In this document: positions 6,703 to 43,188 of the stretch, one piece after another
How positions within the stretch are numbered: position 1 is the stretch's first letter
How the letters are laid out: each line of letters opens with the position of its first letter
NCBI GenBank assembly: GCA_045120465.1
Contig: JBGVEW010000022.1
Location: 12,782 to 76,781 of the forward strand
Length of the DNA: 64,000 bases
Direction: 5' to 3'
From: Eubacteriales bacterium
GTDB lineage: Bacteria; Bacillota; Clostridia; Oscillospirales; CAG-272
Position numbers and translations under genes: made by a program
Notes under the pieces: generated by a model
What the model was told of the DNA's origin: nothing
Database searches by the model: none
What the model saw: only the letters and a program-made list of their open reading frames with translations

Positions 6703-6745
6703 TTGGACACATCATTTGCGTGCAATTGCGCGATGATGTGTCCAA
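6703..6745. repeat. H palindrome copy 1 (bidirectional terminator-like)
   Basis: TTGGACACATCAT-17 nt-ATGATGTGTCCAA, with an A-run before and a T-run after. It is identical to copy 4 over all 43 nt. Confidence 0.85.
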
Positions 6746-6776
6746 TATTTTTTTATTTTTCAGGATGGTTTTCAAG

Positions 6777-6938
6777 GTGAAAAAGCTAAAAATGGCGCGA
6801 GGTATAACGCTCACTTTCGAAGAAGGCTGCAACAAATATTTAGAGAATTGTCGTCAAAGGAATTTAAGAGAAGGCACTATCGAGCATTACAGGCAGAGCT
6901 ATGTGCAAGTTTGCAAAGTTTTTTATGTGAACTCTTGA
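6777..6938 (+). pseudogene. tyrosine recombinase/integrase, N-terminal fragment
   Basis: VKKLKMARGITLTFEEGCNKYLENCRQRNLREGTI looks like the start of an integrase N-terminal domain. It stops after 53 codons and is a near-duplicate of 13951-14100. Confidence 0.55.
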
Positions 6939-7028
6939 TTTAATAGATCGCACATGCTACAATATTTATGTTTATGTATTGAGAACGCTTTTTGATTCTT
7001 ACAGTATTTGTGAATTCAGGAGGAGATT

Positions 7029-8438
7029 ATGAAAAAGATCGCTGTTGTACACGGGGAGTGGAGTTCGGATGTAATGCGTCGTGCGTTTGCTTTGCTTAGC
7101 GAATTGATACTGGACTATACCTTTGAATATCCGGTTGGTCTCGATTGTGATAAGGCGGAAAACCTTGACGTTCTTTTGGAAAATTATCATCCTATTTACA
7201 TAGGAACAAAGCAAAATAACAGTTATATAAGAAGGAATTCGGATTTTTGTCTGCAACATCCCGAAGAATATGGAATAAACGTTTCAAACGGAAAGATAAT
7301 CGTCGAAGGATTTGATGACAGAGGTGTACTTTACGGTTGTATTGATCTTTATAATAAGTATTTTATCACACAGGAATATCCGCATAATGACAAATATGTG
7401 TTGCCCATAGAAAAATGGAGATTTGCTGATTATCGCTATTCGTCATATCCTTCCGTAAAAGAGCGTGGGATATGGACGTGGGGACATGTTATATATGATT
7501 GGCGCGGTTTTATTGACAATATGGTCAAGCTTAAAATGAACACGTTAACTGTCTGGAATGATTACCCACCCGTAAATGCGCGCGAGATGGTTGATTACGC
7601 GCACTCTTGCGGAATAAAAGTCATTTGGGGATTCCCTTGGCTTTGGGATACAAACTGCAAAAAGATACCGTTTGACAGGCTGTGTGAGTATAGCGAGGGG
7701 ATATTCCGAGGATATGATGAAGAATATCGAGATTTGCCGATTGATGGTATTTATTTTCAAACCGCTACCGAATTTGGCGAAGAAACCGTTGGCGGTATCA
7801 CGGTTGCCGAGGCTGTGACCGCATTCGTAAATCACACAGCAGCCTATTTTTATGAGAAATACCCCAATCTTGAGATACAGTTTGGGCTTCATGCCGAATG
7901 TGTTAAAAACAAGCTTGAATACATTGAAAAAGTTGATAAACGTATCAAGATCGTTTGGGAGAATTGCGGTTCATTTCCTTTTGCGTATATGCCGGATAGA
8001 CTGGAGGATTTCACCGAAACCGTGGATTTTGTAAAGCGAATCACGACGCTTCGGGGAGAAAATGAGCGTTTTGGGGCTGTTACTAAGGGGCTTACTAAGC
8101 TTGATTGGTCGGCTTTTGAACATCTTGAAGGTGCGATATGGACAGGAGTAAGCTCTAAGTTGATGAAAGAAAATCGCATTATTCGCAAACGCAAGATATG
8201 GCGCTATTTGCAAGCATACTGGTTAACAAATTCCGACAAGGCACTCGAGATGGTTCGAATCATGGCAAATCATACCCGCGGGAATACCACTATCACCGCA
8301 CTTGTTGAAGACGGAATGTTTGAGGAAAATATTTATTTTCCTGTTGCCCTGTTTTCAGAAATGTTATGGAATGCCGATGGCGATATAAAAAGCATAATAA
8401 ACGAGGTCGCTTTGCGTTCATACGTAGAGTTTGCATGA
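7029..8438 (+). CDS. hypothetical glycoside-hydrolase-like TIM-barrel protein
   Basis: 469 codons after an AGGAGGAG SD. The GFDDRGVLYG N-domain motif and RGIWTWGH / MNTLTVW barrel-like motifs are present. The gene is visibly AT-richer than its neighbours. Confidence 0.55.
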   Translation: MKKIAVVHGEWSSDVMRRAFALLSELILDYTFEYPVGLDCDKAENLDVLLENYHPIYIGTKQNNSYIRRNSDFCLQHPEEYGINVSNGKIIVEGFDDRGVLYGCIDLYNKYFITQEYPHNDKYVLPIEKWRFADYRYSSYPSVKERGIWTWGHVIYDWRGFIDNMVKLKMNTLTVWNDYPPVNAREMVDYAHSCGIKVIWGFPWLWDTNCKKIPFDRLCEYSEGIFRGYDEEYRDLPIDGIYFQTATEFGEETVGGITVAEAVTAFVNHTAAYFYEKYPNLEIQFGLHAECVKNKLEYIEKVDKRIKIVWENCGSFPFAYMPDRLEDFTETVDFVKRITTLRGENERFGAVTKGLTKLDWSAFEHLEGAIWTGVSSKLMKENRIIRKRKIWRYLQAYWLTNSDKALEMVRIMANHTRGNTTITALVEDGMFEENIYFPVALFSEMLWNADGDIKSIINEVALRSYVEFA

Positions 8439-8469
8439 TGTGATAATTTTTAGAATACTTCACATAAAA

Positions 8470-8677
8470 CACAGAGATGATGGGTCTGATCGGAGTCGGG
8501 GTATGACCGTTGCTGTTGCAGTTGCTATCGAAGAGGCAAGCAAGTAATCCTTGATTTATAAGGCTTTTTGAGATTTACAAGACTTCATTGGGGCTTTGTA
8601 AAACTCAAATCGCACAAAATTGAACAATAAAAAGTTGGACACATCATTTTGGAGATTTCTCCATATGATGTGTCCAA
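8470..8677 (+). repeat. R module copy A (candidate structured non-coding repeat, internally deleted) ending in H2
   Basis: It aligns with copies B, C and D from CACAGAGATGATGGG to AATCCTTG and shares the tail with copy B. Confidence 0.7.
8635..8677. repeat. H palindrome copy 2
   Basis: TTGGACACATCAT-TTTGGAGATTTCTCCAT-ATGATGTGTCCAA, with a flanking A-run and T-run. It lies between convergent genes. Confidence 0.85.
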
Positions 8678-8694
8678 TATTTTTCGTTGCTTGA

Positions 8695-8847
8695 TCAGTT
8701 ATAAAACGTTAAAAATGAACCTTTGGCATTTCTGTCGAGTCGTCCCCACCTGGAATGGTTGGCAACAGGGGCGTCGGGAGGCGCTTTGCAGGCCGTAACA
8801 CACGTCACCAACGCCAACACAACCAACAGAATAAAAAGCTTTTTCAT
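8695..8847 (-). CDS. small putative lipoprotein (50 codons)
   Basis: MKKLFILLVVLALVTCVTAC is a signal peptide with a lipobox-like VTAC. The ORF starts 3 nt after the micro-ORF stop. No clear SD. Confidence 0.3.
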   Translation of the reverse strand: MKKLFILLVVLALVTCVTACKAPPDAPVANHSRWGRLDRNAKGSFLTFYN

Positions 8848-8850
8848 AGC

Positions 8851-8982
8851 TTATTTGATGAAGGGGGTGGGGAGAAGGCTATGCTCTTCTCCCTCAAATC
8901 CGTCACTCGACGTCAGGACGTCGTCTGCACAAAGTGCAATCAACTCGACCGTTGGAATCACATATTCTTTTGTCATTCTCAT
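8851..8982 (-). CDS. acidic micro-ORF P1 (43 codons)
   Basis: A GGAGG SD lies 7 nt before the ATG, 13 nt downstream of the phosphoesterase stop. It shares the Y-x-x-P-x-[IV]-E-L...D-x-L-T-S-S motif with P2 at 18622. Confidence 0.5.
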   Translation of the reverse strand: MRMTKEYVIPTVELIALCADDVLTSSDGFEGEEHSLLPTPFIK

Positions 8983-8995
8983 ATCGATTCCTCCT

Positions 8996-11900
8996 TTACT
9001 GTGCGTTCCTGTACGCCTTGGCACTGACGCCGTAGCGATAGAGTGCTTTTGCCAGAGCCTGCATTTCCTCGTTCTGCGTAGCACCGTTGCACATTGCGTA
9101 CGCGTATGCGTTGACACTGTAGCTGATGCTTGCCACGTTCGTGCCGTCATAAAGCAGCTCGACCGTGTAAACGGTATCAAAATTGACCGCGCTGATGCCG
9201 TTGGTGCTAAGCTTATACGTGCCGTTTCCAAGGTGGATAAGATCAGAGAGCGCGTAGCTCGTTCCGTTGACCTTTACGGTCACAAGCGAGAAATCCTCAA
9301 CGTCGGCAAAGATCCTGATCACGATGCTGTTGACCGTATCAAAGCGCACGGTTGCCGACGAGAAGTGCAAGCTTGCATCGGTGTTGCCCGTCAGCGTCAT
9401 TGCGTCGCTCGCAACGGGAGTGACGGTCGAGGGGACGATCTCCTCCGTGCCGTCAAGAATTGCGCCATTGCCTGCGTAATCCTTGTAGTTCTGTGATGCT
9501 TGACCGTAAGACAGAAGATCTGCGATCAGGGTCTGCATCGCCGCATACTGTGCATCGGAAAGACCCAGCTGTGCCGCGCTCTTGGAAAGCAGATTCAAGC
9601 AGTTTTGCTTGATGCTGTAATCCTCCTGCGTTGCGTAAACCGTGTCTCCGACCAGAACCTCAGCGTCGATCAGATCCGCCATCTGCTGAGGCGCGATGCC
9701 GCCGAAGGTGAAGACGTATTCACCGTTTACGACCTTGTAATCGGTCACGGTGGTGGTCTGTCCGTTCATGGTGAAGCGGATCGCAAGATCTCCATTGTCC
9801 AGAATCGCGGGATTGACGACATTGACGTAGTAGTTAATCGCCAGATCCGCGCCGAGGTTGACAGAGGCGCCGGTGAGCTTCAAGTCTTCCGCAGGCTCCT
9901 CAACATCCCCCGTTATCGTAAAGCTATCCAGCACAAGACCGTCCGCTTGTCGAATAGTAACCACGAGGTTGTTCCCCTCTACGTCGATCACCGTATATGC
10001 CGGTTGGTATCTGTCGGGGGAGATGATCGTCATCATATTTTCTTCATTGAGTTCGGCAATACCGTCGTGGTTTGGTGCACAAGAACCGATGGTAGTGTAG
10101 ACCGTGCCGATACCCTTTTGGATCACATCGGGATTTTCCTTTGTCACGATTTGTCTGTTTTTCATCGGATAGGTTCTGGTTACGTGATGCATATGTCCGG
10201 AAAGCACGAGGTCCACTCCGTATTCCTCGATAATATCTACAAGCCATTCATTGTTATTGTTAGCGCCGCTCATATGATACGCGGGGCGGTGCGTCATCAG
10301 AATTGTCCATTTTGCATCCTGATTTGCTTGCAGATCCGCTTTTAACCATGCTCGTTGCTGCTGCATCAGCGCTTTGACGTTGTAGCGTCCCGTAGCACCG
10401 GAGTCAACCACGACAAAATGCACGTCTCCGTAATTAAAGGAATACACGGTCTCGTCGAGGTAATTTACGATCTCCGCACCTATGGGAGTTGCGTCCAGAA
10501 TCGCAGTCGTGTCGGTGTACGCCGCATCTCCGCCGTTGTTCGGGTGATTGAAGTACATATCAAAGAAATCGTGCTTGTCGTGCACACCGCCGCCGATGGT
10601 TGCAAAGTGTGGGATCTGTGTGACAATTCCGCCGAGCGACTTAAAGTACATGCCGTACTCAGCAGGAGCGTTGGTCTCCGTTATATCTCCCGTATTCAGG
10701 ATCATTGCGGGTGCGGTCTCCTTCAATGCCTGTGTGATCGCCACCTGTGAATACATATACGCCTTGGGACTGGAGCCTGTTCCTCCCCAGGTATATGCCT
10801 GATTGTCTCCAAAGGCAATAAAGGAAAAGTCGTCAACGTTTTCCTTTGCGGTGGTAAAGAAGTAGCTCTTGCTCCAATCGGTCTCCTCGTTTGTGCTATT
10901 CTTGATCCCCACCTTGTATTCGTATCGCGTGCTTGCCTTCAGCTCCGTAACGTCTGCCTTAAAGTAGGCTTCCGTATCGCTGAGCGATTCTTCTTCCTTG
11001 ATTGCATCAACGACCGACCAAGCGCTCTCGCCGACCGCACGGTACTTGATCGCCATTGCACCCTCGCCGATGAAGGATTCGAGTGCCGTCCAGGCAAACG
11101 CTCTGTCGTATCTTGCGTCGGTAAAGGAGGTTACGAGGTTGTATACGTTCGCGTCAAAGCCCTCGTAAACGGGCTCCTCGGAGAGCAGGGTATATTCATT
11201 CAACGTAACGTCTGCGTAGCTGATGCTTTCCTTCGATACGCTGTTCACGCCGTAAATTCCTACGGTAAAGTCTCTTACGGTCTCATCGATCCGCATACCG
11301 CGACGGATCGTGCCACCCTCGGGTAAGGTGACGGAGCAGAGCAACATTTTTTGTGAGGGATTGACGCGGGCATTGATGTGGTACGTTCCGTGCCCGTAGC
11401 TTCCCTTGTTCGCGCCGCCAAGCATACTCATACCGCTTTCCTTGATGGTGAGAAGCTCATAGTCACCCATCATTACCGCGGTAGCATCACCGTTGAAGGA
11501 AAGGTCACAGTCATAGATCGTTTCTTGCCCCTCGGGAACGCTCAGATCGGAGGATGCTACGAGCTCAAAGGCGTTGATCGCCGTGAATTTAAAGTTGCTG
11601 ATCTCTACCTTTCCGTCTTCACAGCGGAATACCCAGAATTTGCTGCATTCCTCATAGCTTGCGCCGGTAGGATCAACGGTGCGGGTGTATGCTCTGGAGT
11701 ATCCGTTTTCCGCGTTTGTGATCGAGGTATATATTGAGTCGGATGCCGTGGTGTTATTCCACGTCATCGTTACGGAATACGTCCCCGTACCGTAATTACT
11801 GTCAACGAGCTTTTTGCCGGAGGCAAGAATTGCTCCATCCGAGCTTCGGAACTGAGCGACGCCCGTCGTTCCGCCAAAGGTCATATTCAATTCACGCGTC

Positions 11901-12898
11901 CATGTGCTTTCGGTAATCAACGACTTGTTGTTTCCAAAGTCCGTGATATCCACGTTAAAGGAAATGCGATAGATTCCCTTGCTTTCAACGTTGGGGATAT
12001 TATCCCACCACAAGGATACCGAGTCGCCTTTTTTCATATAGAGCTTTCCGTTGTATCCGATCGGGGCTGTCGGAGTGTAATTGTACCCGTAGTTTGACGA
12101 GCTGGGAGGTGTTTGTTCAACCGTCCAGATCCCATCGCCCTCCGTCGTCAGGAAGGACTCGCCGATCTCCTCAAAGCCGGAAATGGAAAGTGCTCCGTCA
12201 GTAAAGGTGAAATTGGTGATTTCTACCGCACCGTCCTCACAGCGGAATGCCCAGAACGGGCGGCATTCCGCGTATGTCTCCGTGGTGTCATCAACGCTTT
12301 TCGTTTTTGTTGCATTGATCTCGTCGCCCTTGGTGACCGTGGTCGTTATCGTATTTGGGGAGACCGTAGTATCCCAAACGATCTTTACGGAATACGTATC
12401 CGATCCGTAGTTGCTTTCCGAAACACCGCTTCCGGACATCATAAGCTTTTTTGCGGTTGTGTGACAGCTTCGGAACTGAGCCGCATCATACCCTCCGCCC
12501 AAAAGAACGTTCAGCTCTCTTTTCCAAACGGATTCACTGATGAGGGATTTGTTGTTTCCATTGTCGGTGACATCAACGTCAAAGGAAAGCGTATACGTGC
12601 CCGTTTTCGCAACACCGGGGATCTTGCTCCAGTAAAACGCCGCGGAGTTACCCTCGGTTAAGGAAAGCTTGCCATCCGTGACTGTCGGTGCAGTCGGGTT
12701 ATACGAGGCGAAGTTGGTCAGCGACGTCTTTGGCTCTATTGCCCAAAGCCCCGAATTGAAGCTCTCCTCGTATACTACGTCGGGCTCATCGCTCGCGCTC
12801 ACTGCGCCTGCCATGATGCTGCTCACAGAAATCATTTGAACGAACATCACAAGTGTCAAGAAAACCGACAAAGCCTGTTTGATTTTTGATTTGTACAT
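8996..12898 (-). CDS. secreted multidomain metallophosphoesterase (calcineurin-like) with duplicated N-terminal jelly-roll-like domains
   Basis: ATG 12898 follows a GGAGGAAAG SD. The signal peptide is MYKSKIKQALSVFLTLVMFVQMISV. Motifs GDNQ, NTGDITE, HRPAYH and SGHMHH are present. Two paralogous ~190-aa domains share SF[DN]VD[VI]TD.GNNKSLI and FRCEDG.VEI[TS]NF. Confidence 0.75.
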   Translation of the reverse strand: MYKSKIKQALSVFLTLVMFVQMISVSSIMAGAVSASDEPDVVYEESFNSGLWAIEPKTSLTNFASYNPTAPTVTDGKLSLTEGNSAAFYWSKIPGVAKTGTYTLSFDVDVTDNGNNKSLISESVWKRELNVLLGGGYDAAQFRSCHTTAKKLMMSGSGVSESNYGSDTYSVKIVWDTTVSPNTITTTVTKGDEINATKTKSVDDTTETYAECRPFWAFRCEDGAVEITNFTFTDGALSISGFEEIGESFLTTEGDGIWTVEQTPPSSSNYGYNYTPTAPIGYNGKLYMKKGDSVSLWWDNIPNVESKGIYRISFNVDITDFGNNKSLITESTWTRELNMTFGGTTGVAQFRSSDGAILASGKKLVDSNYGTGTYSVTMTWNNTTASDSIYTSITNAENGYSRAYTRTVDPTGASYEECSKFWVFRCEDGKVEISNFKFTAINAFELVASSDLSVPEGQETIYDCDLSFNGDATAVMMGDYELLTIKESGMSMLGGANKGSYGHGTYHINARVNPSQKMLLCSVTLPEGGTIRRGMRIDETVRDFTVGIYGVNSVSKESISYADVTLNEYTLLSEEPVYEGFDANVYNLVTSFTDARYDRAFAWTALESFIGEGAMAIKYRAVGESAWSVVDAIKEEESLSDTEAYFKADVTELKASTRYEYKVGIKNSTNEETDWSKSYFFTTAKENVDDFSFIAFGDNQAYTWGGTGSSPKAYMYSQVAITQALKETAPAMILNTGDITETNAPAEYGMYFKSLGGIVTQIPHFATIGGGVHDKHDFFDMYFNHPNNGGDAAYTDTTAILDATPIGAEIVNYLDETVYSFNYGDVHFVVVDSGATGRYNVKALMQQQRAWLKADLQANQDAKWTILMTHRPAYHMSGANNNNEWLVDIIEEYGVDLVLSGHMHHVTRTYPMKNRQIVTKENPDVIQKGIGTVYTTIGSCAPNHDGIAELNEENMMTIISPDRYQPAYTVIDVEGNNLVVTIRQADGLVLDSFTITGDVEEPAEDLKLTGASVNLGADLAINYYVNVVNPAILDNGDLAIRFTMNGQTTTVTDYKVVNGEYVFTFGGIAPQQMADLIDAEVLVGDTVYATQEDYSIKQNCLNLLSKSAAQLGLSDAQYAAMQTLIADLLSYGQASQNYKDYAGNGAILDGTEEIVPSTVTPVASDAMTLTGNTDASLHFSSATVRFDTVNSIVIRIFADVEDFSLVTVKVNGTSYALSDLIHLGNGTYKLSTNGISAVNFDTVYTVELLYDGTNVASISYSVNAYAYAMCNGATQNEEMQALAKALYRYGVSAKAYRNAQ

Positions 12899-13022
12899 TG
12901 TCTTTCCTCCATTCAAAAAAGATTGTAACAACATTGTAGCACAGTTGCATTGACAAAACCTTACATCTGTGATACAATAAATTTAGGAAAACTACGATTT
13001 TTTGAAATTGGAGGATAGAAAA

Positions 13023-13835: not shown

Positions 13836-13876
13836 CTCGCGGCAAGCTATCATTTGTAATGCGAGCAACAAAAAAA

Positions 13877-13919
13877 TCGGACACATCATTTTGAGCTTTT
13901 GCTCTGGTGATGTGTCCAA
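13877..13919. repeat. H palindrome copy 3 (slightly degenerate arms)
   Basis: TCGGACACATCAT-TTTGAGCTTTTGCTCTG-GTGATGTGTCCAA, with an A-run before and a T-run after. Confidence 0.8.
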
Positions 13920-13950
13920 TATTTTTTTGTTTTCAAGGAGGATTTCCAAG

Positions 13951-32237: not shown

Positions 32238-32252
32238 TGGGAAAAACCCAAA

Positions 32253-32371: not shown

Positions 32372-32381
32372 GAGCAAAACG

Positions 32382-33380: not shown

Positions 33381-33382
33381 CT

Positions 33383-33802: not shown

Positions 33803-33814
33803 ATCGAGCATGGA

Positions 33815-35004: not shown

Positions 35005-35128
35005 AACCCCGCCCCGACTCCCCGTGAGTCGGGGCACCTTTTCTCTTGACACCCCCTCAAAAATATGGTATGATAAAAATGTAATCGGCGCTCCTTCCCT
35101 TCCCCTACAACTCCGAAGGCATCCGCAC
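35005..35128 (+). repeat. cassette-junction repeat J2
   Basis: The same hairpin (35012-35034), promoter TTGACA-17 nt-TATGAT (35046-35074) and rhs junction as J1. No rhs sequence follows it. Confidence 0.7.
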
Positions 35129-35633: not shown

Positions 35634-37550
35634 TTATAATTTCATGCCGCCGTCCCAGGCGAACTCCTCGCCCGTGGCTTCTACTGTGTGCATTTGGGTT
35701 TGCTGATTGAAATCTACAGAGAATTGCAGCAGTTCAACCGAAATATCTTCTTTTCCTTGAACGGGAACGTACACAATAGATTGAATGCTTTTGTCGGGGA
35801 AGGGGTTTTCGTATACGGTTTCGTAGGCGAACCCATCCCGATATTTTACGGGCATGGTTGAGTAAGAAATCTCTCTCAAGCCCGAATCCTTGTAATCTTC
35901 ATCATAATATTTGCAGGAGATATTGCCGCCGTATCTCACAGGGAGATCGGCAACGCTTCCGTCGTTGTATGTCACTCTGTAATGACCGAGCAAATACTCC
36001 GAATCCACAATGAAAACGCCGTCGTAAAAGATTTTGTAATTGATCTTGTGGGCTGTGGTGTGGACGATTTTGATGCCTGATCGGATTCCCTTATTCTTAA
36101 TGCGATACGCCTCGCGAAAGGCCTTAAAATGCTTTTCTTCACATGACATTTTTCCAAAACGCTCGCACCAAAATGCATAAGCCGTTGAAATCAGCGAAAA
36201 GAATTGCCCGTTGCGTTGCATATACTCTTCGCCAAAAGAACCCCAATTGGAAACAAAACCGCCTAAGATTCCCTGCTTTCTTCGTTGATCCCAGCTTTCG
36301 ACGTTGATCGCATTTAAGTTTGCAAAATAGGTTCGAAATCCCCGTGAGTGATATACCTTATCGTACTCCTTGTTAAACCGATAGTACCAATGCAGTATTT
36401 CCACGTCGCGCGAAATAAGGTCTCGACAAGGAAAGAGGGCGTGGACGTGTGCATCTCCTTTGCCGTGCCCCGCACCTCCGATCGGCTCACCGCTTCCGGG
36501 ATAATAGCGCGCGTTCAGCAGCTTTTCACCCCACATCATCGTGCGTATGCCCTTTTCCTTCAAAAAGGCGTGGATGCGGTTGACGTCGTTTGCATACAGA
36601 ACAGGAGCAGGTGTAGATCTGCACCGTTTGCATATCCTGATGGAATAGGCTTCATCGTGTCCGATGTTGATCCTTGCAGGCTCAAAAACCTCGATCACCT
36701 CTTCCAGAATGTCAAATACATATCGATAAACATCCGGATGATTGGGGCAATACGAATCCGGATAAGCGTCATTTTGCCGCTCACTCAGATGCGGATAAGC
36801 CATAACAAGATAATCGCAGTGGCTTAAGGTCGGGCATTCCGGAATCACTTCAAGCCCACGCGAACGACAGTATTCCGCAATGTTGCGGCACTCCTCTTTG
36901 GTGAGGATATCCCCTTCGGCATTATCGCAGTGGATCGAGTTTTTGGGCCATGAGTAGGTTTTATGCTGGATTTCATGCGCCCTGCCCGAATATTGATGCA
37001 CATCCTTACAAAACGCAGACCACACCTCATTGATGCGCGGATGTCTGTCATATTGCATGGCACCGCCGACTTCCAAAATGATACTGTTGTATTTTAATTC
37101 CGATAAAAGATCTACCGTTTTGTAAAAATCACGAAGACCTTTTCTGGATGGCAGATATGCACGGTATCCTCTTGTTGCAAACAATGGATAATCATACAAA
37201 AATCCACGCTGAAGCTCTCCCGACGCATACAACGCGCACAAGGTAGATGCCGCGTAAATAAACGCACGCGCGCTTGCCGCCCATACCGTTGTTACGGTAT
37301 CCACCATGATAGCATACTCTTCGTCGTTCGCCGAGGGGCATCTGTATTTTCCGATTCTGTTGATCACATCCTTGTTCAAGCCGAGAACAAATCTGATTTC
37401 TTTGACCGTTCCGTTTTTCAGTGGCGTATTGCTGTCAATGAGTCGGCTGATACAATCCGAATACTGCTCTTCATCAAAAAGACATACGGTATTCTTTCCC
37501 AAGGACAATTTCTTTTTTTCTTTTTTATAAAGCTTCAAATCAAAAAACAT
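35634..37550 (-). CDS. glycoside hydrolase family 20-like (beta-N-acetylhexosaminidase-like)
   Basis: The INIGHDEAY motif resembles the GH20 H-x-G-G-D-E motif. ATG 37550 is preferred because a GGAGGA SD lies 7 nt upstream; an alternative ATG is at 37571. Confidence 0.6.
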   Translation of the reverse strand: MFFDLKLYKKEKKKLSLGKNTVCLFDEEQYSDCISRLIDSNTPLKNGTVKEIRFVLGLNKDVINRIGKYRCPSANDEEYAIMVDTVTTVWAASARAFIYAASTLCALYASGELQRGFLYDYPLFATRGYRAYLPSRKGLRDFYKTVDLLSELKYNSIILEVGGAMQYDRHPRINEVWSAFCKDVHQYSGRAHEIQHKTYSWPKNSIHCDNAEGDILTKEECRNIAEYCRSRGLEVIPECPTLSHCDYLVMAYPHLSERQNDAYPDSYCPNHPDVYRYVFDILEEVIEVFEPARINIGHDEAYSIRICKRCRSTPAPVLYANDVNRIHAFLKEKGIRTMMWGEKLLNARYYPGSGEPIGGAGHGKGDAHVHALFPCRDLISRDVEILHWYYRFNKEYDKVYHSRGFRTYFANLNAINVESWDQRRKQGILGGFVSNWGSFGEEYMQRNGQFFSLISTAYAFWCERFGKMSCEEKHFKAFREAYRIKNKGIRSGIKIVHTTAHKINYKIFYDGVFIVDSEYLLGHYRVTYNDGSVADLPVRYGGNISCKYYDEDYKDSGLREISYSTMPVKYRDGFAYETVYENPFPDKSIQSIVYVPVQGKEDISVELLQFSVDFNQQTQMHTVEATGEEFAWDGGMKL

Positions 37551-37833
37551 CTTGAATTCCTCCATACGCATTTACAAATGTCGAACGCGTATCGATCATA
37601 TTACGTATAACGAGCATATCATATTTGTTACGCTTTGTCAATAGAGATTTCAAGAAAAGATATGAAGAATTCAAAAAACCAAAGACGGAGGATTTCACAA
37701 TGAAAAAGCTGAAGATAACCGCTCAAAAATCGACCTTAAAAAAGGTTGCGACAAGCATCTTGAATACCATATCTTTTTTCGTTAGTCAGTTAAAATTGTG
37801 AATCTTTTGCGCCGTTTTATCAAAAAAAAGAAA

Positions 37834-37857
37834 ACGGTGCCACTTTCGCGGCACCGT
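37834..37857 (-). terminator. intrinsic terminator after the GH31 gene
   Basis: ACGGTGCC/GGCACCGT stem flanked by an A-run and a T-run. Confidence 0.6.
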
Positions 37858-37865
37858 AAAAAAGC

Positions 37866-40274
37866 TTATTTCCAATGCTTGATCTCGTTCCACCAAATCC
37901 CCTCAAATATGGGAAGCAGTTCCTTTGCATCGGGAGAATCGATCTCCAGGAACACGGGGATCTGACCGAGATTTGCCTTGACGGAAACGGTTCTTCCTCC
38001 CTCGACCGTCTCATCGGTGAGCAGGTTTTTCCACTTACCCGCCGGCAAATAGACCTCTCTTTCAAAGGTATTCTCGGTAAGGATCGGTGCGACAAGAAGC
38101 GCATCTCCGAGAAGGAATTCGTCGATGATGTCATATACCTTCGTATCCTTCAGATACTTCAAAACGGGGTGGCGCACAGGAGGCATACCCGTGTCACAGG
38201 CGATTCTCGAATACTTTTGCATATAGGGGATCAGCTCCTTGTGAAGCCCCATAAAGTTGCGGTAGATCGACTGTGCCTCGGGCGTCATTTCATAGGCATG
38301 TCTGACGTCTCCCATGGATTCCACGTTGGTAAAGAACGCGGTAAAGGCAACGCCACGGCAAAAGAGTGCCGATTCGTATTCACGTCCTATGGTATGATAG
38401 TTACAGCCGCGATACGCATAGCCGCTTACGTCAAAGGACATAAAGGGGATTCCCGAAAGTCCCGAGGTAACGACTGCTAACAGCTGGTCATCCAGCTTAT
38501 CGTACTGACGCGCTTGGTCACCTGCCCACATATAGGGAGATCGCTGTGAGCCGATACCGCCACCGCGTGAGAAGACCATAAAGCCGTCCGTTTTTCCTTT
38601 TTCCAGTTTAAAGCGGTTCATTCTCTTATAGAACTCGGAAATAAAGAAGGTAGGATATGCGTGATGCTCTGTTCCGGAAAGCAGCTTTTCCGGTTTTTTC
38701 CAGTGATAGTGCGTAACGGTATTGCCGTAAGGCACATCACCGTCGGGAAGGATCTCGCAAAAATCAATCTTTACACCATCAATGCCGATATCGATCATCT
38801 CGCCCCAGATCTCGTTAAAATACCAGTCCACCGCCTCGTCGTTGGTAATGTCCAGATATCTTGCCGAACGCATCTTACCGTCAGCACCCTTTCCGACGTC
38901 TGGGTTTTCGGCGGTTCCCATTACCCACGGGATATACGTCGTATTGTCAAAACGCTCTACCGTACCGTCGGCATTCTTGACCTCCACGTCCGCATGAACC
39001 CAGTAAGAATCCTTCATGCCGCGCTTATCGGGACGAACACGACCCAGCCCCATATAGACCATTGCGCGCAGACCGTGTGTATGCAACCAACTCACAGCCT
39101 TTTTCAGATCCGCCATTTTTTCCTCGCCGTTTGCCAAAAAGGCAGTGGGCCAGTTTGAGCCTTCCATATTGGCAGCATCCGGCTTAAGATCGGCCTCGAT
39201 ATACTTTGTCATGATGGTCTTGACGCTGCTTCCCAAGGGATTTAATCTACCTCTGGTTTTAAACCATTTGCCCTCGTCGTCCTTGACGTAGGCGAGCGCA
39301 TACGTCCCATCCTCCTTGCGATTGTAAAATCTTACCGCCGCCAAGCAAGCCTCCTCGCTTACCTCCTTGATCGAACGATAACCGTCACCGTCGGAGATGA
39401 AAAGCGTTTCCCAATCGGGATAATCCTTGATGGAATCACAGCAAAGGTCCTTTTCAAAATTGGCAAAATCCGGAGCATAACGGCAGATCTGCACGCCCTG
39501 CATCCAAGGCTTCGGCATATCTGCATGTCCCGAGATCTCGGTGTATCCGCGCAAAACGTCTTTGGGATCCTCCGTCGCATAGAAATAAGCATCCAAAGAC
39601 TTCGCATTCAAAGTGTACGACCATTCATCCGCCACGGTCGCACCGAAATCGGCAAGTCCGATCTCATAACGGTTGATAAACATACCGCCGCCGCGCGTGG
39701 TAAAGAAGAGCGGGATCACCGTATATGAAGTAGAGGAATTATTCCAACCGTCGCAGGTAAAAATTCTGACCTTCCTGCCGCGTTTGTTGGCAACGTCCAG
39801 TCGCTCTCCGCCTCCGTAAACTGCTTCATCAGGCGCAAGGCTTCCCTTGAGAAGATAGGCATCCGCGGTCGTCGAAAGCTCTGTGATCTCGATCTTCAAT
39901 TCACCGCTCGCAGAGTAAAACTGCAAGGACGGCTTATTTTCAAGCGAGATACGGACAGACGAACCGTCTCTCGCCAACAAAAGCACACCGCCCTCACACT
40001 CTGTCACCTGCAAACGCCCGTCGCAATCACGGTTTTCCTCACCAAGATAGCGGGAGAGCAGCTGTGCGCCGCCGATCTCCGAAAATTTTGCAGTACCGGT
40101 TTGGTTGGAACGAATTCTCCATCCCCTGACTCCCTCATTGCTGATGCGGACACCGATCCCGTCGGTGCTTTGGAAATAAAATGCCTTGCTTGTCCAAAAC
40201 GCCGTTTTGATCGCAGACGACGTGGGCAGCTCGACAGAAGTAGCTCCCTTTACAAAAAAACGTTTCTTTTCCAT
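37866..40274 (-). CDS. glycoside hydrolase family 31 (alpha-xylosidase/alpha-glucosidase-like)
   Basis: The GVKIDFCE (nucleophile region) and YMWAGDQ motifs are present. ATG 40274 follows a GGAGG SD. Confidence 0.85.
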   Translation of the reverse strand: MEKKRFFVKGATSVELPTSSAIKTAFWTSKAFYFQSTDGIGVRISNEGVRGWRIRSNQTGTAKFSEIGGAQLLSRYLGEENRDCDGRLQVTECEGGVLLLARDGSSVRISLENKPSLQFYSASGELKIEITELSTTADAYLLKGSLAPDEAVYGGGERLDVANKRGRKVRIFTCDGWNNSSTSYTVIPLFFTTRGGGMFINRYEIGLADFGATVADEWSYTLNAKSLDAYFYATEDPKDVLRGYTEISGHADMPKPWMQGVQICRYAPDFANFEKDLCCDSIKDYPDWETLFISDGDGYRSIKEVSEEACLAAVRFYNRKEDGTYALAYVKDDEGKWFKTRGRLNPLGSSVKTIMTKYIEADLKPDAANMEGSNWPTAFLANGEEKMADLKKAVSWLHTHGLRAMVYMGLGRVRPDKRGMKDSYWVHADVEVKNADGTVERFDNTTYIPWVMGTAENPDVGKGADGKMRSARYLDITNDEAVDWYFNEIWGEMIDIGIDGVKIDFCEILPDGDVPYGNTVTHYHWKKPEKLLSGTEHHAYPTFFISEFYKRMNRFKLEKGKTDGFMVFSRGGGIGSQRSPYMWAGDQARQYDKLDDQLLAVVTSGLSGIPFMSFDVSGYAYRGCNYHTIGREYESALFCRGVAFTAFFTNVESMGDVRHAYEMTPEAQSIYRNFMGLHKELIPYMQKYSRIACDTGMPPVRHPVLKYLKDTKVYDIIDEFLLGDALLVAPILTENTFEREVYLPAGKWKNLLTDETVEGGRTVSVKANLGQIPVFLEIDSPDAKELLPIFEGIWWNEIKHWK

Positions 40275-40343
40275 TGTAAACGCCTCCATAATACAGTTAA
40301 AAAATGAGAGAGTAGCACACTACTCCCTCCCATTTTATCATAT

Positions 40344-40544
40344 TCAATTTTGTTTGTCAACCTTTAAAATTTCAATTTTGACCTTTAAAGCATCCTGCGC
40401 GGAGGCAACGAACACACGGTAGTGAGCGTTGCGATTTTCCGCCTCGTTTGCCGAGATCCATTGCACCGAAAAATCATCACCCGACAGCCGCGCGCGGGAA
40501 AGCGTGCAACGATTGATCAGGTCTGCGTTCCACTGAATATCCAT
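40344..40544 (-). CDS. small hypothetical protein (66 codons)
   Basis: ATG follows a GAGGTGAGAGG SD, upstream of the GH31 gene on the same strand. Confidence 0.35.
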   Translation of the reverse strand: MDIQWNADLINRCTLSRARLSGDDFSVQWISANEAENRNAHYRVFVASAQDALKVKIEILKVDKQN

Positions 40545-40772
40545 CCTCTCACCTCTCTTTTCATCTGTTCTCATTATACATCCTTTTCCACCGTTTTTCA
40601 ATACCATGTCCGATTTTTGCATCATTCAAAAAATTCCGCATCGGAGAGTTCCTTTGAAAGTGACGGTGAATCTCCCGATCCAAAAGATACGTTTGGTATT
40701 GCATTTTAAAAGAAATTCGTGTATAATGGATTCGGACGTATGTTACACACCGATGCGGAAAGGGGGATTCCC

Positions 40773-40928
40773 ATGAAATTGATCGTCATTGGAGATTCCA
40801 TCACGGTCGGCACTTATACGGGAGAAAACGAGTGCTCTCCCAAATCGGTCGTGCACCTCAATCCCGCAGGACACCGCTTATACGCGGAATTCGTGTATGA
40901 GCAAATTCTGAAAGCAAGGAGCTCGGCA
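40773..40928 (+). pseudogene. collapsed SGNH/GDSL hydrolase remnant, in frame with the GH43 gene
   Basis: MKLIVIGDSITVGTY (block I) is joined directly to HLNPAGHRLYAEFV (block V). Blocks II-III are missing. Confidence 0.5.
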
Positions 40929-42371
40929 ATGAAAGAAATTTACCAATATAAGACCTACTGCAATCCGCTCTCCGTTCCCGACATCCCGCGCGGAATCGAC
41001 GGAAAAAACGCCATGGCGTGGAGCGGCGAACAGACGCGCGACTACCGCTCGATCGCCGACCCGAGCGTTCTGTACTTCGAGGGCAAATGGTATCTCTACC
41101 CCAGCTACGGAATCCTTTGGGAATCCGAGGATTTTGTCAATTGGAAGAGCATTCCCTGCACGCCCTACGAAGCCCCCGGCTACAGCCCCGCGCCTCTGGT
41201 GCATAACGGTAAGGTGTGGCTGGCGGTGCATTCCCGTCCGATGTTTGTGGCGGACTCTCCGCGCGGCCCGTTTACCGAGGTGGGCAATCTCGTAAAGCCC
41301 GACGGCACCGAGTTTACCGTTCTTGACCCCGCGCTCTTCAAGGATGACAACGGACGCATCTATCTGTACTGGGCGGATTTTGCGATCAACCCCGCAGGAA
41401 AAAAGGTTCTCGCCACGATGGGAGCGGAGCTTGATCCCGCACGTCCCAATCGCCTCATTACCGAACCGAAATTCCTGTTCGGATTTGACACCGCACATGA
41501 ATGGGAGCGATTCGGCGCGCACAATCAGGACGTCGAAAACGGCTGGTGCGAGGGACAGTGGATCATTAAGAAAAACGGCAGATACTATCTCATCTACTCC
41601 GGCAACGGCACGCAGTTTGAAACCTATGCGCAGGGCGTGTACTATTCCGACGAGGGGCCTCTTTCGGGCTTCACGTATCAAAAAAACAACCCGCTGACCC
41701 AACGCCTCCACGGGCTGGTCAGCGGCGCGGGACACGGTTGCGTGGTAGAGGGACCCAACGACACGCTCTGGGCTTTTTACACCGTGCGCATGTGCGCGGC
41801 ACACGTCTATGAGCGTCGCATCGGCATGGATCGCGTCTATATCGACGAAAACGGTGAATTGTACTGCAAGGGCATTACCGACACGCCGCAATACGCCCCC
41901 GGTGAAGTTCTTGAGGGAGATACGGGGCTGCTTCCCCTGACCTTTCAATTGCGTGGCAGAGTGAGGGCGAGCAGTATGCGCGAGGGGCATGAAAGCTTTT
42001 ACGCGCTGGAGCAGAATCTGAACACGTGGTGGCAGCCTGCGGACAGCGACCCTCTTCCCCAACTGACGGTGCGCCTTGCCGCCAACTACCGCGTATCCGC
42101 TTCCCGCGTCATCTGGCAGGATACGGGCTTGCATTACGACGCGGGCATTGTTCCCGGTCCTATCCAATACAAAATTGAGCTTTTGCAGGGAGAGGATTGG
42201 GTCACCCTGCTTGATTGCTCCGAGAATGACACCGATCTTTTGATCGATTACCGCACCTTCCCGTCGCAGTGCGGCACAGAGGCACGGCTGACCGTCCTCG
42301 GCGCGCCCGACGGCATTCGCCCCGGCGTTATCAGCTTCTCGGTTTTCGGAACGCGCGAAAACCAATCATAA
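40929..42371 (+). CDS. glycoside hydrolase family 43 with C-terminal discoidin (F5/8 type C)-like domain
   Basis: An AAGGAG SD precedes ATG 40929. The GKWYLYPSY and NGRYYLIYSGNG propeller motifs are present. The C-terminal module contains NTWWQP. Confidence 0.75.
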   Translation: MKEIYQYKTYCNPLSVPDIPRGIDGKNAMAWSGEQTRDYRSIADPSVLYFEGKWYLYPSYGILWESEDFVNWKSIPCTPYEAPGYSPAPLVHNGKVWLAVHSRPMFVADSPRGPFTEVGNLVKPDGTEFTVLDPALFKDDNGRIYLYWADFAINPAGKKVLATMGAELDPARPNRLITEPKFLFGFDTAHEWERFGAHNQDVENGWCEGQWIIKKNGRYYLIYSGNGTQFETYAQGVYYSDEGPLSGFTYQKNNPLTQRLHGLVSGAGHGCVVEGPNDTLWAFYTVRMCAAHVYERRIGMDRVYIDENGELYCKGITDTPQYAPGEVLEGDTGLLPLTFQLRGRVRASSMREGHESFYALEQNLNTWWQPADSDPLPQLTVRLAANYRVSASRVIWQDTGLHYDAGIVPGPIQYKIELLQGEDWVTLLDCSENDTDLLIDYRTFPSQCGTEARLTVLGAPDGIRPGVISFSVFGTRENQS

Positions 42372-42382
42372 GGAGAGACAGT

Positions 42383-43108
42383 ATGAAATTCATTGAAAAG
42401 CTTGCAAAAAAGCAAAACAACCTTTACGGAGCTGCCTCCGCAACCATTGCGTTCCTTGGTGACAGCGTCACGCAGGGCTGCTTTGAGATCTATGAATCCG
42501 GCAAAGCCATTGATACGGTATTTGACAACAAAAGCGCGTACAGCACGCGTATAAATGAAATTTTACATATGATGTTCCCCAAGGCGCATATCAACGTCAT
42601 CAATTGTGGCATCAGCGGTGACAACGCTCCCAACGGGCTCTCCCGTCTTGAGCGCGACGTCCTCCCCTTCAAGCCCGACCTCGTCGTGGTCAGCTACGGT
42701 CTCAACGATGCGGGACGGGGAGAGACGGGGCTTGCGGTTTACGTCAACGCATTGGACGGCATCTTCAAGCGCATCACAAACAGCGGCGCAGAATGCATTT
42801 TTATGACCGAAAACACGATGAACACAAACGTCAGCCCGCATATCACCAACGAACGCATCCGCGAGATCGCGGAGCGGATGATGAAAACGCAGAACAGTGG
42901 TATGCTGGAGCGTTACTTTGAGGCGGGAAAGGAAGTTGCGAACGCAAACGGTGTCAAGGTCTGCGATTGCTATACCAAGTGGAAGGCGATGATCGACGCA
43001 GGCGTGAACGTCACCGAGCTGCTCGCCAACAAGATCAATCATCCCATCCGCGAATTCCACTATCTGTTCGCTATCAGCCTTTTGGAGACCATGTTTGAGC
43101 TGAACTGA
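42383..43108 (+). CDS. SGNH/GDSL hydrolase
   Basis: An AAGGAGAG SD. Blocks FLGDSVTQG, GISGDNA, YGLNDA and NHPI are present. Confidence 0.8.
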   Translation: MKFIEKLAKKQNNLYGAASATIAFLGDSVTQGCFEIYESGKAIDTVFDNKSAYSTRINEILHMMFPKAHINVINCGISGDNAPNGLSRLERDVLPFKPDLVVVSYGLNDAGRGETGLAVYVNALDGIFKRITNSGAECIFMTENTMNTNVSPHITNERIREIAERMMKTQNSGMLERYFEAGKEVANANGVKVCDCYTKWKAMIDAGVNVTELLANKINHPIREFHYLFAISLLETMFELN

Positions 43109-43150
43109 TCGAAAAAATCATTCCGTTCGCAATCAAGCCAAAAAAACGGG

Positions 43151-43188
43151 GACACATCATTTTGGAGGTTTTCTCCACATGATGTGTC
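43151..43188. repeat. H palindrome copy 7 (shortened arms)
   Basis: GACACATCAT-TTTGGAGGTTTTCTCCAC-ATGATGTGTC, with an A-run before and a T-run after. It lies between convergent genes. Confidence 0.8.

Follow-up and report, generated by a model that had tools for sequence, protein, structure and literature searches.

Between 6.7 and 43.2 kb of the 64,000-nucleotide stretch of DNA analysed here (the window), a palindrome with conserved arms and a variable centre recurs seven times among accessory genes. A sequence-only reading had taken these palindromes for bidirectional terminators and, from their architecture, possibly for lox- or attC-like recombination sites. Do they end transcripts, do they recombine DNA, and why is one sequence repeated at a single locus? 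We consider it probable that they are terminators borne by a family of genomic islands, stacked by integration at the 3′ end of a GGGtGRT gene (PF14057) and rearranged by later recombination.

The palindromes and their array

A search of the window for GGACACATCAT with at most one mismatch returned 14 matches on the two strands, forming seven inverted pairs that start at 6705, 8637, 13879, 20410, 24722, 35589 and 43150; shuffled sequences gave 1.2 ± 1.2 matches, and 0 of 100 shuffles reached 14. All seven palindromes first proposed are thus present. Their arms are inverted GGACACATCAT/ATGATGTGTCC, with a single right-arm mismatch in c3, c6 and c7, and the centres fall into the groups previously described: c1 shares its centre with c4, those of c2, c6 and c7 resemble one another, and c3 and c5 each have their own. 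Every copy folds into a lower stem of 13–14 bp, a small internal loop and an apical stem of 2–5 bp, so that the centres do pair with themselves as had been claimed; folding free energies lie between −23 and −30 kcal/mol (z-scores relative to shuffles, −6.3 to −9.0). The centre starts with TTT on one strand only, and by this polarity all seven copies point in the same direction. The A-run before and T-run after that had been noted for the window copies are found at 91% and 97%, respectively, of 134 instances. Together, folding energies and flanking runs support the terminator proposal: the palindrome is probably a strong Rho-independent terminator hairpin, and its bidirectionality is probable.

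Elsewhere in the window the arm sequence is absent, and the other perfect-stem terminators (47995, 63508 and 32259/35011) have no sequence in common with the palindromes, again in line with the sequence-only reading. Confinement of the arms to 6.7–43.2 kb holds for the window; upstream of it, however, the same genome has at least two further copies (L122 1603 and 4135), and the first 6.7 kb of the window therefore also lie within the array. In strain L122, whose sequence is 99.7% identical to window positions 1–8548, an intact GGGtGRT gene lies 3.9 kb ahead of the window start, with these two palindromes behind it.

The palindromes are embedded in longer repeats. The first, c1 (6703–6745, plus strand; centre TTGCGTGCAATTGCGCG; −28 kcal/mol), lies 4 nt past the stop of a 23S_rRNA_IVP-family gene (6153–6698), and about 32 nt beyond it begins a 5′ remnant (6777–6923, plus) encoding residues 1–48 of an Xer-like tyrosine integrase, 73% identical to the integrase of L010. 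A decayed GGGtGRT 3′ fragment (X′; 8474–8547, plus), reading ..TEMMGLIGVGV* and then out of frame VAVAVAIEEASK*, with core ATGACCGTTGC at 8503, precedes c2 (8635–8677, plus; centre TTTGGAGATTTCTCCAT). The cargo that follows (8996–13835) encodes a 1312-aa Metallophos protein (minus) and an AraC regulator (plus); strains L121, L122 and L123 lack window positions 8548–14280 and hence this cargo. The AraC gene stops 41 nt upstream of c3 (13877–13919, plus), behind which lies a second integrase remnant (13951–14205, plus; residues 1–84, 80% identical; the ORF extends to 14310) with only SAM-like N-terminal integrase domains in Pfam.

Farther on, a conserved island right-end segment (P-arm; 20048–20210, plus), with promoter-like CGATATAAT at 20078–20097 and homology to 35208–35368 and to loci L041, L051, L052, L100 and L104, runs into a GGGtGRT 3′ fragment (20211–20321, plus) made up of EMMGLIGAGNNPMVG, a 21-nt hairpin insertion (20255–20275), the core ATGACAT (20276) and the last 12 codons with their stop. 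Then comes c4 (20408–20450, plus), with the centre of c1 and the stop of a convergent His_Phos gene 22 nt downstream. Its cargo (20473–24361) comprises His_Phos, EamA and GH30 genes (minus) and an AraC gene (plus); in L016, a different species, it recurs at 96% identity, enclosed by two palindromes whose centres are different, and in L004 most of it stands directly behind an intact GGGtGRT gene and its palindrome. A further P-arm and fragment (24424–24619, plus), whose hairpin insertion (24553–24573) carries a compensatory change and whose stop codon is mutated to GAA, leads to c5 (24720–24761, plus; centre AAACGTATTTTCGCTT), a centre type found again in at least seven other species. Next are a Rhs/YD-repeat polymorphic toxin of 2164 aa accompanied by orphan toxin and immunity cassettes (25244–34983, plus), another P-arm and fragment (35208–35487, plus; TGGTATAAT at 35219–35238, hairpin insertion at 35420–35441, core at 35442) and c6 (35587–35629, plus), 4 nt from the stop of a convergent GH20 gene. 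The last cargo segment (35634–43108) holds GH20 and GH31 (minus) and GH43 and GDSL esterase genes (plus). Palindrome c7, which spans 43150–43189 (plus) rather than the 43151–43188 first given, is flanked by two convergent genes, GDSL (ending 41 nt upstream) and AraC (ending 4 nt downstream), with neither a GGGtGRT fragment nor an integrase remnant beside it.

Decayed GGGtGRT 3′ fragments thus precede four of the seven palindromes, and integrase 5′ remnants begin about 35 nt past two. The earlier statement that all copies sit at gene 3′ ends does not extend to c2 and c5, which are 200–360 nt from the nearest intact gene end with a pseudogene fragment intervening. Two features of the array run counter to the explanation that we favour: c1, c3 and c7 abut cargo genes without a GGGtGRT fragment, and several cargo segments follow the T-run directly, without an integrase remnant in between. 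At least eight mostly decayed islands with CAZyme, AraC-regulator and Rhs-toxin cargo have probably accreted in tandem to form the window; comparison with L122 puts the start of the array at the GGGtGRT gene that lies before the window, and the array differs between strains.

The island family and its integration site

More than 100 gut-Clostridia species have the same module: a GGGtGRT 3′ end followed by an untranslated region, the palindrome and an integrase gene. In a set of 128 palindromes drawn from about 100 species, GGGtGRT or a 3′ fragment of it is always upstream on the TTT-first strand, ending 36–230 nt before the hairpin, and the integrase N terminus begins about 45–60 nt past the hairpin start; some 45 of the 128 have no such fragment, abut cargo genes and are counted as lacking the integrase as well. 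In a second sample picked by integrase alone, the hairpin stands 18–40 nt upstream of the integrase start at 39 of about 51 evaluable loci, with a GGGtGRT gene or fragment upstream wherever the sequence suffices. Covariance model R1 scores the integrase strand higher for 50 of 51 hairpins, and N-terminal remnants like those past c1 and c3 occur at about 27 of 57 integrase-anchored loci. The islands belong to a widespread integrative family of gut Clostridia (Oscillospiraceae, Acutalibacteraceae and relatives).

Throughout the family the 13-bp lower-stem sequence, the 5′ UUU internal loop and the two-tier shape are retained, and the spacer between the arms varies from 15 to 21 nt. The 113 distinct centres from other genomes contain on average 5.35 pairs, compared with 3.44 ± 0.14 after shuffling and never more than 3.92 in any of 300 shuffle sets. 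Compensatory changes are present in both stems; across integrases down to 66% identity, the lower stem is identical or altered by compensatory pairs only. Convergent ORFs end within 50 nt in 38 of 96 instances. Conservation of the lower stem far above the need of a terminator hints at a further sequence-specific role and is another point against the explanation that we favour.

The islands encode a 312-aa Xer-like tyrosine recombinase that scores 55 bits against an integron-integrase model with a cut-off of 265 and is better matched by XerA, XerC and XerD. In phage and plasmid collections even the closest integrases show less than 32% identity, and we found no paper linking GGGtGRT to this clade. 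Neither the target gene nor the integrase clade is known from described systems.

Comparison of empty and occupied sites locates the crossover. In one species, defined by an identical GGGtGRT protein (P0130) and the same upstream genes, all three empty sites end in an ordinary native terminator without the palindrome, and all seven occupied sites have it; the palindrome therefore arrives with the island. The sequence switches at GGTATGAC/GTTGC, about 40 nt ahead of the GGGtGRT stop codon, that is, within the coding sequence and 110–270 nt upstream of the palindrome. Immediately past ATGAC, the density of synonymous mismatches between the occupied gene (X) and the empty-site allele rises from about 4% to 22–27%. 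When attL sequences are aligned across hosts, host-specific differences end at GGTATGAC, and everything rightward is constant, palindrome centre included. Moreover, identical copies of one integrase protein (P0114) follow GGGtGRT in genomes whose upstream gene order is unrelated, and the element, judged from these alignments, moves between hosts. At the attR ends of L131 and L135 the native terminators are ordinary, unrelated hairpins, and in L136 a single element has an attL palindrome unlike its attR palindrome. The sites as compared here indicate that the palindrome is carried beside the recombination site and is not itself the crossover site. Counter to the favoured explanation, not every comparison fixes the crossover to one nucleotide, the exceptions being L211, L213 and the X′ fragments of L135 and L136 at attR.

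These comparisons place island integration at the 3′ end of GGGtGRT, a highly conserved gene, with strand exchange near GGTATGAC/GTTGC. Each island entering the site carries, in this order, new copies of the last 13 codons, a 3′ untranslated region of 70–230 nt, the palindrome, the integrase gene 18–40 nt on, cargo and, at the far end, a P-arm with a GGGtGRT-like fragment. According to the literature, the GGGtGRT gene is abundantly expressed. The hairpin may end transcription of the rebuilt gene and may insulate or attenuate the integrase gene; the gap between hairpin and integrase start codon leaves no room for an integrase promoter of its own. From the structure of the array and known precedent, repeated integration at one gene would have stacked islands head to tail, and decay of integrases and GGGtGRT fragments would have left integrase-less segments resembling cis-mobilizable elements (CIMEs). 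Each junction is left with one palindrome, all of them in a single polarity.

Strain differences and alternative readings

Strains differ by entire segments of the array, and palindromes border accessory segments that are present in some strains and absent from others, as the sequence-only reading had anticipated. Several joints fall at the palindrome itself. L062 and L077 are 100% identical over 298 nt of left flank and diverge at the hairpin, L062 having a cargo segment between two palindromes where L077 has different DNA; L021 and L035 likewise share a left flank and then diverge. The right flank of L016 is 98% identical to that of c4 from the right arm on, and strain-level joints occur between L121 and L122 at the palindrome at 4135 and between L121 and the window at c4. 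Such joints inside the palindrome between near-identical flanks are not predicted by simple accretion with random deletion, and thus count against that part of the account. We suggest that the repeated modules of 40–300 bp (gene fragment, untranslated region, palindrome and integrase 5′ end) undergo homologous recombination and gene conversion, which would swap cargo segments and centres and bring hairpins right up to the ends of cargo genes. These modules are probably hotspots of such secondary exchange.

The same joints could mean that the palindrome is itself a functional recombination site, either a secondary att or module-exchange site for the Xer-like recombinase or the substrate of a hairpin- or cruciform-specific activity, with integrase-less, palindrome-bounded cargo exchanged between arrays in trans like integron cassettes or Acinetobacter pdif modules. 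Further points in its favour are that one cargo segment lies between differently centred palindromes in two species (window and L016), that one centre type is seen in unrelated flanks, that the distance from hairpin to integrase is short and fixed with arm changes that are compensatory only, and that ATGATGGGTCT, found where the att homology within GGGtGRT begins on the left, is similar to the arm ATGATGTGTCC and is the exact arm of some members, L163 among them. We nevertheless regard it as unlikely. Intact elements use the core inside the GGGtGRT gene, attB is free of the palindrome, attL and attR palindromes differ, and a spacer of 15–21 nt is ill suited to a fixed tyrosine-recombinase synapse on duplex DNA. 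The joints are scattered to both sides of the centre and as far as 20 nt beyond the arms, exactly as homologous exchange between short repeats predicts, and in some segment polymorphisms the break is at the X′ stop codon or within an integrase remnant rather than at the hairpin. The original recombination-site proposal is supported in part, by the proximity of a tyrosine recombinase gene and by the joints in or at the edge of the palindrome; the crossover lies in GGGtGRT.

Considerably less probable is an autonomous or trans-mobilised miniature repeat of the REP or MITE kind that invades A/T-rich gene ends, its link to the islands being secondary. In strain L129 a discrete 51-nt hairpin unit occupies window position ~47128, 4 kb outside the array, and is absent from the window and L128; this lone unit also runs counter to the explanation that we favour. 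Degenerate family members terminate unrelated genes (L120 4368), and the 45 or so instances without adjoining fragment or integrase would fit such a repeat. On the other hand, copies per genome are apparently few and grouped at a single locus, neither a RAYT nor an IS200-like gene was seen, and the L129 indel, the only one, has no clear target-site duplication. The fixed-distance hairpins at 39 of about 51 integrase genes and the palindrome-free empty sites show that the hairpin travels with islands.

lox, FRT and dif sites have a fixed spacer of 6–8 bp. An integron-like attC array or a lox-like array of canonical inverted-repeat core sites, suggested by the conserved arms with self-paired centres, by the match of GTTGGAC to GTTRRRY and by the adjoining tyrosine recombinase gene, is very improbable and is contradicted by a box order (GTTGGAC...GTCCAAC) that reads opposite to attC R″/R′, by an Xer-like rather than IntI recombinase and by the position of the crossover, as well as by the variable 15–21 nt spacer, the palindrome-free empty sites, the unlike attL and attR palindromes, a lower stem without extrahelical bases and inter-palindrome segments that carry multiple genes, in both orientations, together with regulators of their own.

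Comparison with known systems

Island-borne terminators stacked at GGGtGRT most resemble the tandem accretion of integrative elements and CIMEs at conserved gene 3′ ends, as described for ICESt1/ICESt3-related elements at fda in Streptococcus thermophilus and for IMEs at tRNA or ribosomal-protein genes (PMC5704250, section 2.3). In both, a tyrosine integrase targets a conserved gene 3′ end that the element restores, successive integrations leave direct repeats with gene-end fragments, older elements lose the integrase and keep the att-flanking repeats, and the composite array differs between strains. Here, by contrast, the target is GGGtGRT, the integrase clade is not one known from described systems, no conjugation or mobilisation genes were seen, and the sequence of an att-proximal terminator hairpin is conserved family-wide and forms a hotspot of secondary exchange.

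Composite tandem islands at the 3′ end of one conserved housekeeping gene, separated by short direct repeats in which the gene end is included, are also a feature of the staphylococcal SCC elements (SCCmec, ACME) at rlmH/orfX. These use large serine recombinases (Ccr), and their repeats are integration-site sequences (ISS) of about 15 bp, not hairpins; the present islands have a tyrosine recombinase and hairpins. Acinetobacter pdif modules, in which conserved inverted arms with a variable middle border exchangeable gene modules beside a tyrosine recombinase, share with attC sites and with our palindromes the arms, the variable middle, the module borders and the neighbouring recombinase, but the main crossover here lies away from the hairpin, and geometry, box order and recombinase clade do not fit. 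In form the palindromes are like intrinsic bidirectional terminators, with a stable stem-loop, a T-run directly after, an A-run before and a position between convergent genes or at a gene end. Ordinary terminators, such as the native ones in L131, L135 and L205, are idiosyncratic in sequence, whereas this palindrome has kept its lower-stem sequence, internal loop and shape across more than 100 species because it is carried by a mobile element.

A palindrome family with terminator features

At no more than one mismatch, the arm sequence GGACACATCAT matched the window 14 times, compared with 1.2 times in shuffles, and none of 100 shuffles reached 14. The matches form seven inverted pairs, starting at 6705, 8637, 13879, 20410, 24722, 35589 and 43150 (palindromes c1 to c7), bearing out the seven copies proposed in the sequence-only reading. 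Each unit folds in two tiers, a lower stem of 13–14 bp and, past a small internal loop, a short apical stem, with energies of −23 to −30 kcal/mol and z-scores of −6.3 to −9.0. The centres differ among copies as that reading described, and they are indeed self-paired: apical stems appear in the folds, and across the distinct centres from other genomes the mean is 5.35 pairs within the centre, versus 3.44 ± 0.14 after shuffling. The expected A-run before and T-run after the hairpin fit all seven copies. The claim that every copy sits at a gene 3′ end holds for five, whose nearest intact stop codon, on one strand or both, is no more than 41 nt away, and not for the remaining two. The other terminators of the window, which have perfect stems, proved unrelated in sequence to the palindromes, as had been proposed. 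A 49-nt inverted repeat at 63212–63260 and 63509–63557 (78% complementary, arms 248 nt apart) includes a terminator-like hairpin at 63508. No Rfam family matched the palindromes, and the whole window gave zero matches at gathering thresholds; matches near c4 at a permissive E-value were spurious microRNA hairpins far below those thresholds.

A pattern scan with exact arms, limited to one genome for each species, located the palindrome in at least 119 stretches, nearly all from metagenome-assembled genomes of gut or rumen Clostridia (Oscillospiraceae, Acutalibacteraceae and unclassified Eubacteriales). Among 134 instances, a T-tract (five or more T within the 12 nt that follow the hairpin) is present in 97% and an A-tract (five or more A within the 12 nt that precede it) in 91%. 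Beyond the window, the stop codon of an upstream ORF lies within 100 nt of the hairpin in 54 of 96 cases, and that of a convergent ORF within 50 nt in 38 of 96. With a stable stem-loop containing G+C, a U-tract after the stem and a position past the gene end, the palindromes have the sequence properties of intrinsic terminators; they are predicted to be Rho-independent, and the A-tract and U-tract would allow action in both directions. A generic terminator scan detected one of the seven two-tier hairpins, a count not above shuffles; because it takes only loops of 3–8 nt, it missed the other six and is uninformative.

The hairpin has a polarity. In 105 of the 134 instances the centre starts with TTT on one strand; on this strand the GGGtGRT gene (PF14057) or its 3′ fragment, starting near VEMMGLIG, always lies upstream, and the integrase gene, where present, begins ~45–60 nt past the hairpin start. 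Nearly all centres consist of TTT(T), a stem of 4–5 bp, a loop and 1–3 nt, and 118 distinct centres occur among the 134 instances. Since the exact-arm scan fixed the arms by design, we drew a second sample chosen by the integrase protein alone. Here a hairpin precedes the integrase start by 18–40 nt at 39 of about 51 evaluable loci, a pattern that persists down to 66% integrase identity, and the arms show compensatory variants (AGACACATCAT/ATGATGTGTCT, 11 times; AGACCCATCAT/ATGATGGGTCT; GGACACGTCA/TGACGTGTCC). A covariance model of the hairpin scored higher on the integrase strand for 50 of 51 hairpins. Among metagenome loci (L141–L197, proteins P0001–P0120), most integrase contigs are only 1–3 kb long, starting 100–300 nt before the gene; the repeated module of GGGtGRT end and palindrome seems to be where assemblies break. 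A degenerate family member, GGACACGGCA..TGACGTGTCC, lies ~0.9 kb before the window start (strain contig L120, 4368–4405), directly past the stop codon of a minus-strand AraC gene and 200 nt from a canonical palindrome.

The target gene, the integrase and the integration site

Repeat searches and alignments identified conserved sequence extending 100–350 nt upstream of c2, c4, c5 and c6 and ~200 nt downstream of c1 and c3. The upstream repeat shows third-position substitutions, translates as ..EMMGLIGAGNNPMVG..VAVAVAIEEASK* and is the C-terminus of the ~335-aa GGGtGRT protein (PF14057, E = 3e-181 for an intact copy), whose gene is present in the window only as decayed fragments, four 3′-end pieces. 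A non-coding RNA in the conserved 250–350 nt before these copies was rejected, because the third-position substitutions and six-frame searches show a decayed GGGtGRT coding fragment. As targets, tRNA and tmRNA genes are absent. In the literature, the GGGtGRT family appears in metaproteome studies of gut and rumen. The protein is extremely conserved, at 95–98% amino-acid identity between many 90%-identity clusters (L001–L119, P0121–P0240), and a conserved protein of ~230–238 aa without a Pfam match is always encoded upstream.

The repeat downstream of c1 and c3 is the 5′ part of a gene for a tyrosine recombinase and covers the SAM-like N-terminal domain; such N-terminal integrase remnants also occur at ~27 of 57 integrase-anchored loci. 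In many loci the intact gene directly follows GGGtGRT and the palindrome and encodes a 312-aa tyrosine recombinase (PF00589 plus the SAM-like domain). Its best model matches are XerA, XerC and XerD, all below cut-offs, with XerA the best PDB match; it is a simple Xer-like tyrosine recombinase. A phage or plasmid origin was rejected, as no relative above 32% identity was found in phage or plasmid collections. An identical integrase (P0114) stands behind GGGtGRT in genomes with mutually unrelated upstream genes, so it is part of a horizontally mobile element of ~9–11 kb. The intact 9–11 kb elements with integrase P0114 or P0071 (loci L131, L135 and L136) carry PARG-like/CTP-transferase, Sel1, serine-resolvase, HTH and Macro-domain genes, a cargo that looks defence- or anti-defence-like, unlike the CAZyme cargo of the window.

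In complete elements, attL comprises an intact GGGtGRT gene, the UTR between its stop codon and the palindrome, the palindrome itself and the integrase gene; attR is a repeat of the last 30 codons, 9–11 kb away in L131, L135 and L136. Three comparisons locate the crossover. When attL is aligned across hosts, host-specific differences end at about GGTATGAC. The stretch to its right is constant, from the last 13 codons through the UTR and the palindrome (one centre throughout) to the integrase gene, and is therefore element-borne. The native terminators displaced to attR of L131 and L135 are ordinary hairpins without similarity to the palindrome; the two palindromes of L136, at attL and at attR, are not the same. 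L051, L082, L213 and window copies 4–6 contain nested duplications of the final 13 codons, with the joint at GATGACAY|GTNGC.

The cleanest test, within one species, used ten contigs with an identical GGGtGRT protein (P0130) and the same upstream genes. At three empty sites (L205–L207) the palindrome is absent; no more than 81 nt past the stop codon come a native terminator (AAAAAACGAGCCGC..GCGGCTCGTTT) and the neighbouring gene. The seven occupied sites (L208–L214) each hold different DNA, with an integrase in three and other genes in the rest, and all seven have the element-type UTR and palindrome. Empty and occupied alleles switch directly after GGTATGAC. Synonymous mismatch in the GGGtGRT gene relative to the empty allele is ~4% over nt 1–900 and 1 in 58 over nt 901–958, and rises to 9–11 in 41 over nt 959–999, directly past ATGAC. 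The palindrome, lacking at empty sites and present at occupied ones, thus comes in with the island and is no part of the target site. Inspection by eye of the mapped crossover for a dif-like inverted repeat gave nothing convincing.

Several smaller features adjoin the att core. Three GGGtGRT fragments of the window carry a hairpin of 21–22 nt, AAACAGCCGCAGGCTGTTTTG, inserted just left of it (20255–20275, 24553–24573 and 35420–35441), one with the compensatory change AACAACC/GGTTGTT; L051, L082 and L213 have longer unrelated inserts at this position. A variant UTR consists of tandem short hairpins with CATGAATTG in strain-dependent copy number (L120–L123, ~1370–1600; L121 and L122, 13846–14045). 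The P-arms, conserved segments at island right ends, contain an extended −10-like promoter (CGATATAAT / TGGTATAAT) at 20078–20127 and 35219–35268 of the window, facing the att site and the integrase gene that comes next, with an arm-like GATGTGTTC 22 nt past it.

The probable accretion array and its junctions

Strain variants of the window were retrieved via its own proteins. One of these, L122, is 99.7% identical to window 1–8548 and has an intact GGGtGRT gene 3.9 kb before the window start, with palindromes at 1603 and 4135 between that gene and c1–c7 of the window; the array therefore begins at the target gene and takes in the uxaC–uxuA–GH39 block at the window's left. The segments between palindromes span 2–11 kb, with several genes on both strands and AraC or LysR regulators, and most lack an integrase. 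Pfam assigns their cargo to GH20, GH30, GH31, GH43, a GDSL esterase, AraC and LysR regulators, phosphoesterases and an Rhs toxin locus. The latter (25244–34983) comprises an Rhs/YD-repeat polymorphic toxin gene of 2164 aa, then orphan C-terminal toxin and immunity cassettes; it has 300-nt repeats at 30681–30980 and 32341–32640 (96% identical) and a repeated terminator-plus-promoter module at 32253–32346 and 35005–35098 (93% identical). Strains differ in content: L120 has an extra segment in place of the intact GGGtGRT gene of L122, and L121 has an integrase start after its c4 copy, where the window has a GH30 segment.

The proposal that palindromes mark breakpoints between strains stood in part. 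Junctions between otherwise near-identical sequences are often in or at the palindrome. In L062 versus L077 and in L021 versus L035 the junction follows a shared left flank (for the first pair 298 nt at 100% identity), and in L016 versus c4 it precedes a right flank of 98% identity. Against this, the presence/absence polymorphism of window 8548–14280 (Metallophos and AraC genes), which is missing from L121, L122 and L123, breaks at the stop codon of a decayed GGGtGRT 3′ fragment and at about 14280, not exactly at c2 and c3. L121 and L122 switch ~20 nt left of the hairpin; L120 and L122 have the same flanks with different centres, which is evidence of gene conversion, and the same centre is found in unrelated contexts and species. 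A centre tied to one flank, which would point to a single cleavage site, was rejected because the centre follows neither flank consistently. As junctions fall to the left or the right of the centre, at distances that vary, we ascribe them to homologous exchange and gene conversion among the repeated modules; a sequence-specific activity is a less likely source.

Two further observations agree with junctions in or at the palindrome. c1, c3 and c7 adjoin cargo genes directly, with no gene fragment between, and convergent genes end 4–22 nt past c4, c6 and c7. Contig L129 has at 2095–2145 (window ~47128) a lone degenerate hairpin unit of 51 nt, GGACACGTCA..CGACGTGTCC, with A/T-run, between convergent genes at 46043–47116 and 47223–47993; the unit is absent from the window and L128 and shows no clear target-site duplication.

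These analyses pinpoint a highly variable locus and its element family in abundant, mostly uncultured gut and rumen Clostridia, where islands with carbohydrate-active enzymes, regulators, toxins and defence-like genes pile up and are exchanged behind one conserved gene. The hairpin and gene-end fragment provide a short marker of island boundaries in metagenome-assembled genomes, and their repetition would account for assembly breaks at the locus. Because its target has been mapped, within a gene that is near-universal and very conserved, the integrase is a candidate tool for site-specific integration in bacteria currently lacking genetics.

The hairpin compared with known systems

Retention of the exact stem sequence of a terminator across an entire mobile-element family is a testable puzzle. 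The strictly conserved lower stem and the fixed 18–40 nt to the integrase gene, a gap without room for a promoter, suggest an extra role for the hairpin, which could attenuate or insulate the integrase gene or bind a protein. A more specific reading, which we consider rather unlikely, makes the hairpin a sequence-specific element of the integrase system. It would serve either as a recombination site, accessory or secondary, or as an operator or attenuator to which the Xer-like recombinase binds, possibly in its hairpin form. If true, integrase-less modules bounded by palindromes (CAZyme/AraC units, toxin loci) would be swapped between arrays, and the GGGtGRT locus of gut Clostridia would be a modular gene-capture platform, functioning like integrons or pdif modules with different parts.

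The earlier suggestion of a lox-like or attC-like site fails on five counts: the order of the boxes, the spacer geometry, the type of cassette, the clade of the recombinase and the position of the crossover. An attC site has the order R″ (RYYYAAC)...R′ (GTTRRRY), and its folded strand has extrahelical bases; the palindrome has the reverse order, GTTGGAC...GTCCAAY, and a perfect lower stem without bulged bases. Integrons use an IntI-type integrase, whereas the island integrase scores 55 bits against the integron-integrase model TIGR02249 (cut-off 265) and is nearer to XerA, XerC and XerD. Integron cassettes are mostly single promoterless ORFs in one orientation, in contrast to the multi-gene segments described here. 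Sites of the lox, FRT and dif type have inverted arms of 11–13 bp around a fixed overlap of 6–8 bp, whereas the palindrome spacer, measured between 10-nt arm cores, varies from 15 to 21 nt, and the crossover maps 110–270 nt away. REP or MITE repeats are dispersed in many copies over core intergenic regions, with a RAYT transposase or target-site duplications. Over the sequence covered, the window with its flanks, the copies group in a single array, one isolated 51-nt indel (that of L129) occurs, and no RAYT-like gene was seen.

The integrase beside its target gene, att repeats that include the gene end, empty as well as occupied sites and a decayed tandem are features of tandem accretion and cis-mobilizable elements (CIMEs). 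The system is thus of a known type, site-specific islands accreting behind a conserved gene, at its 3′ end. What sets it apart is a predicted terminator hairpin that moves together with the element, has the same sequence throughout the family and is present at every junction as a marker.
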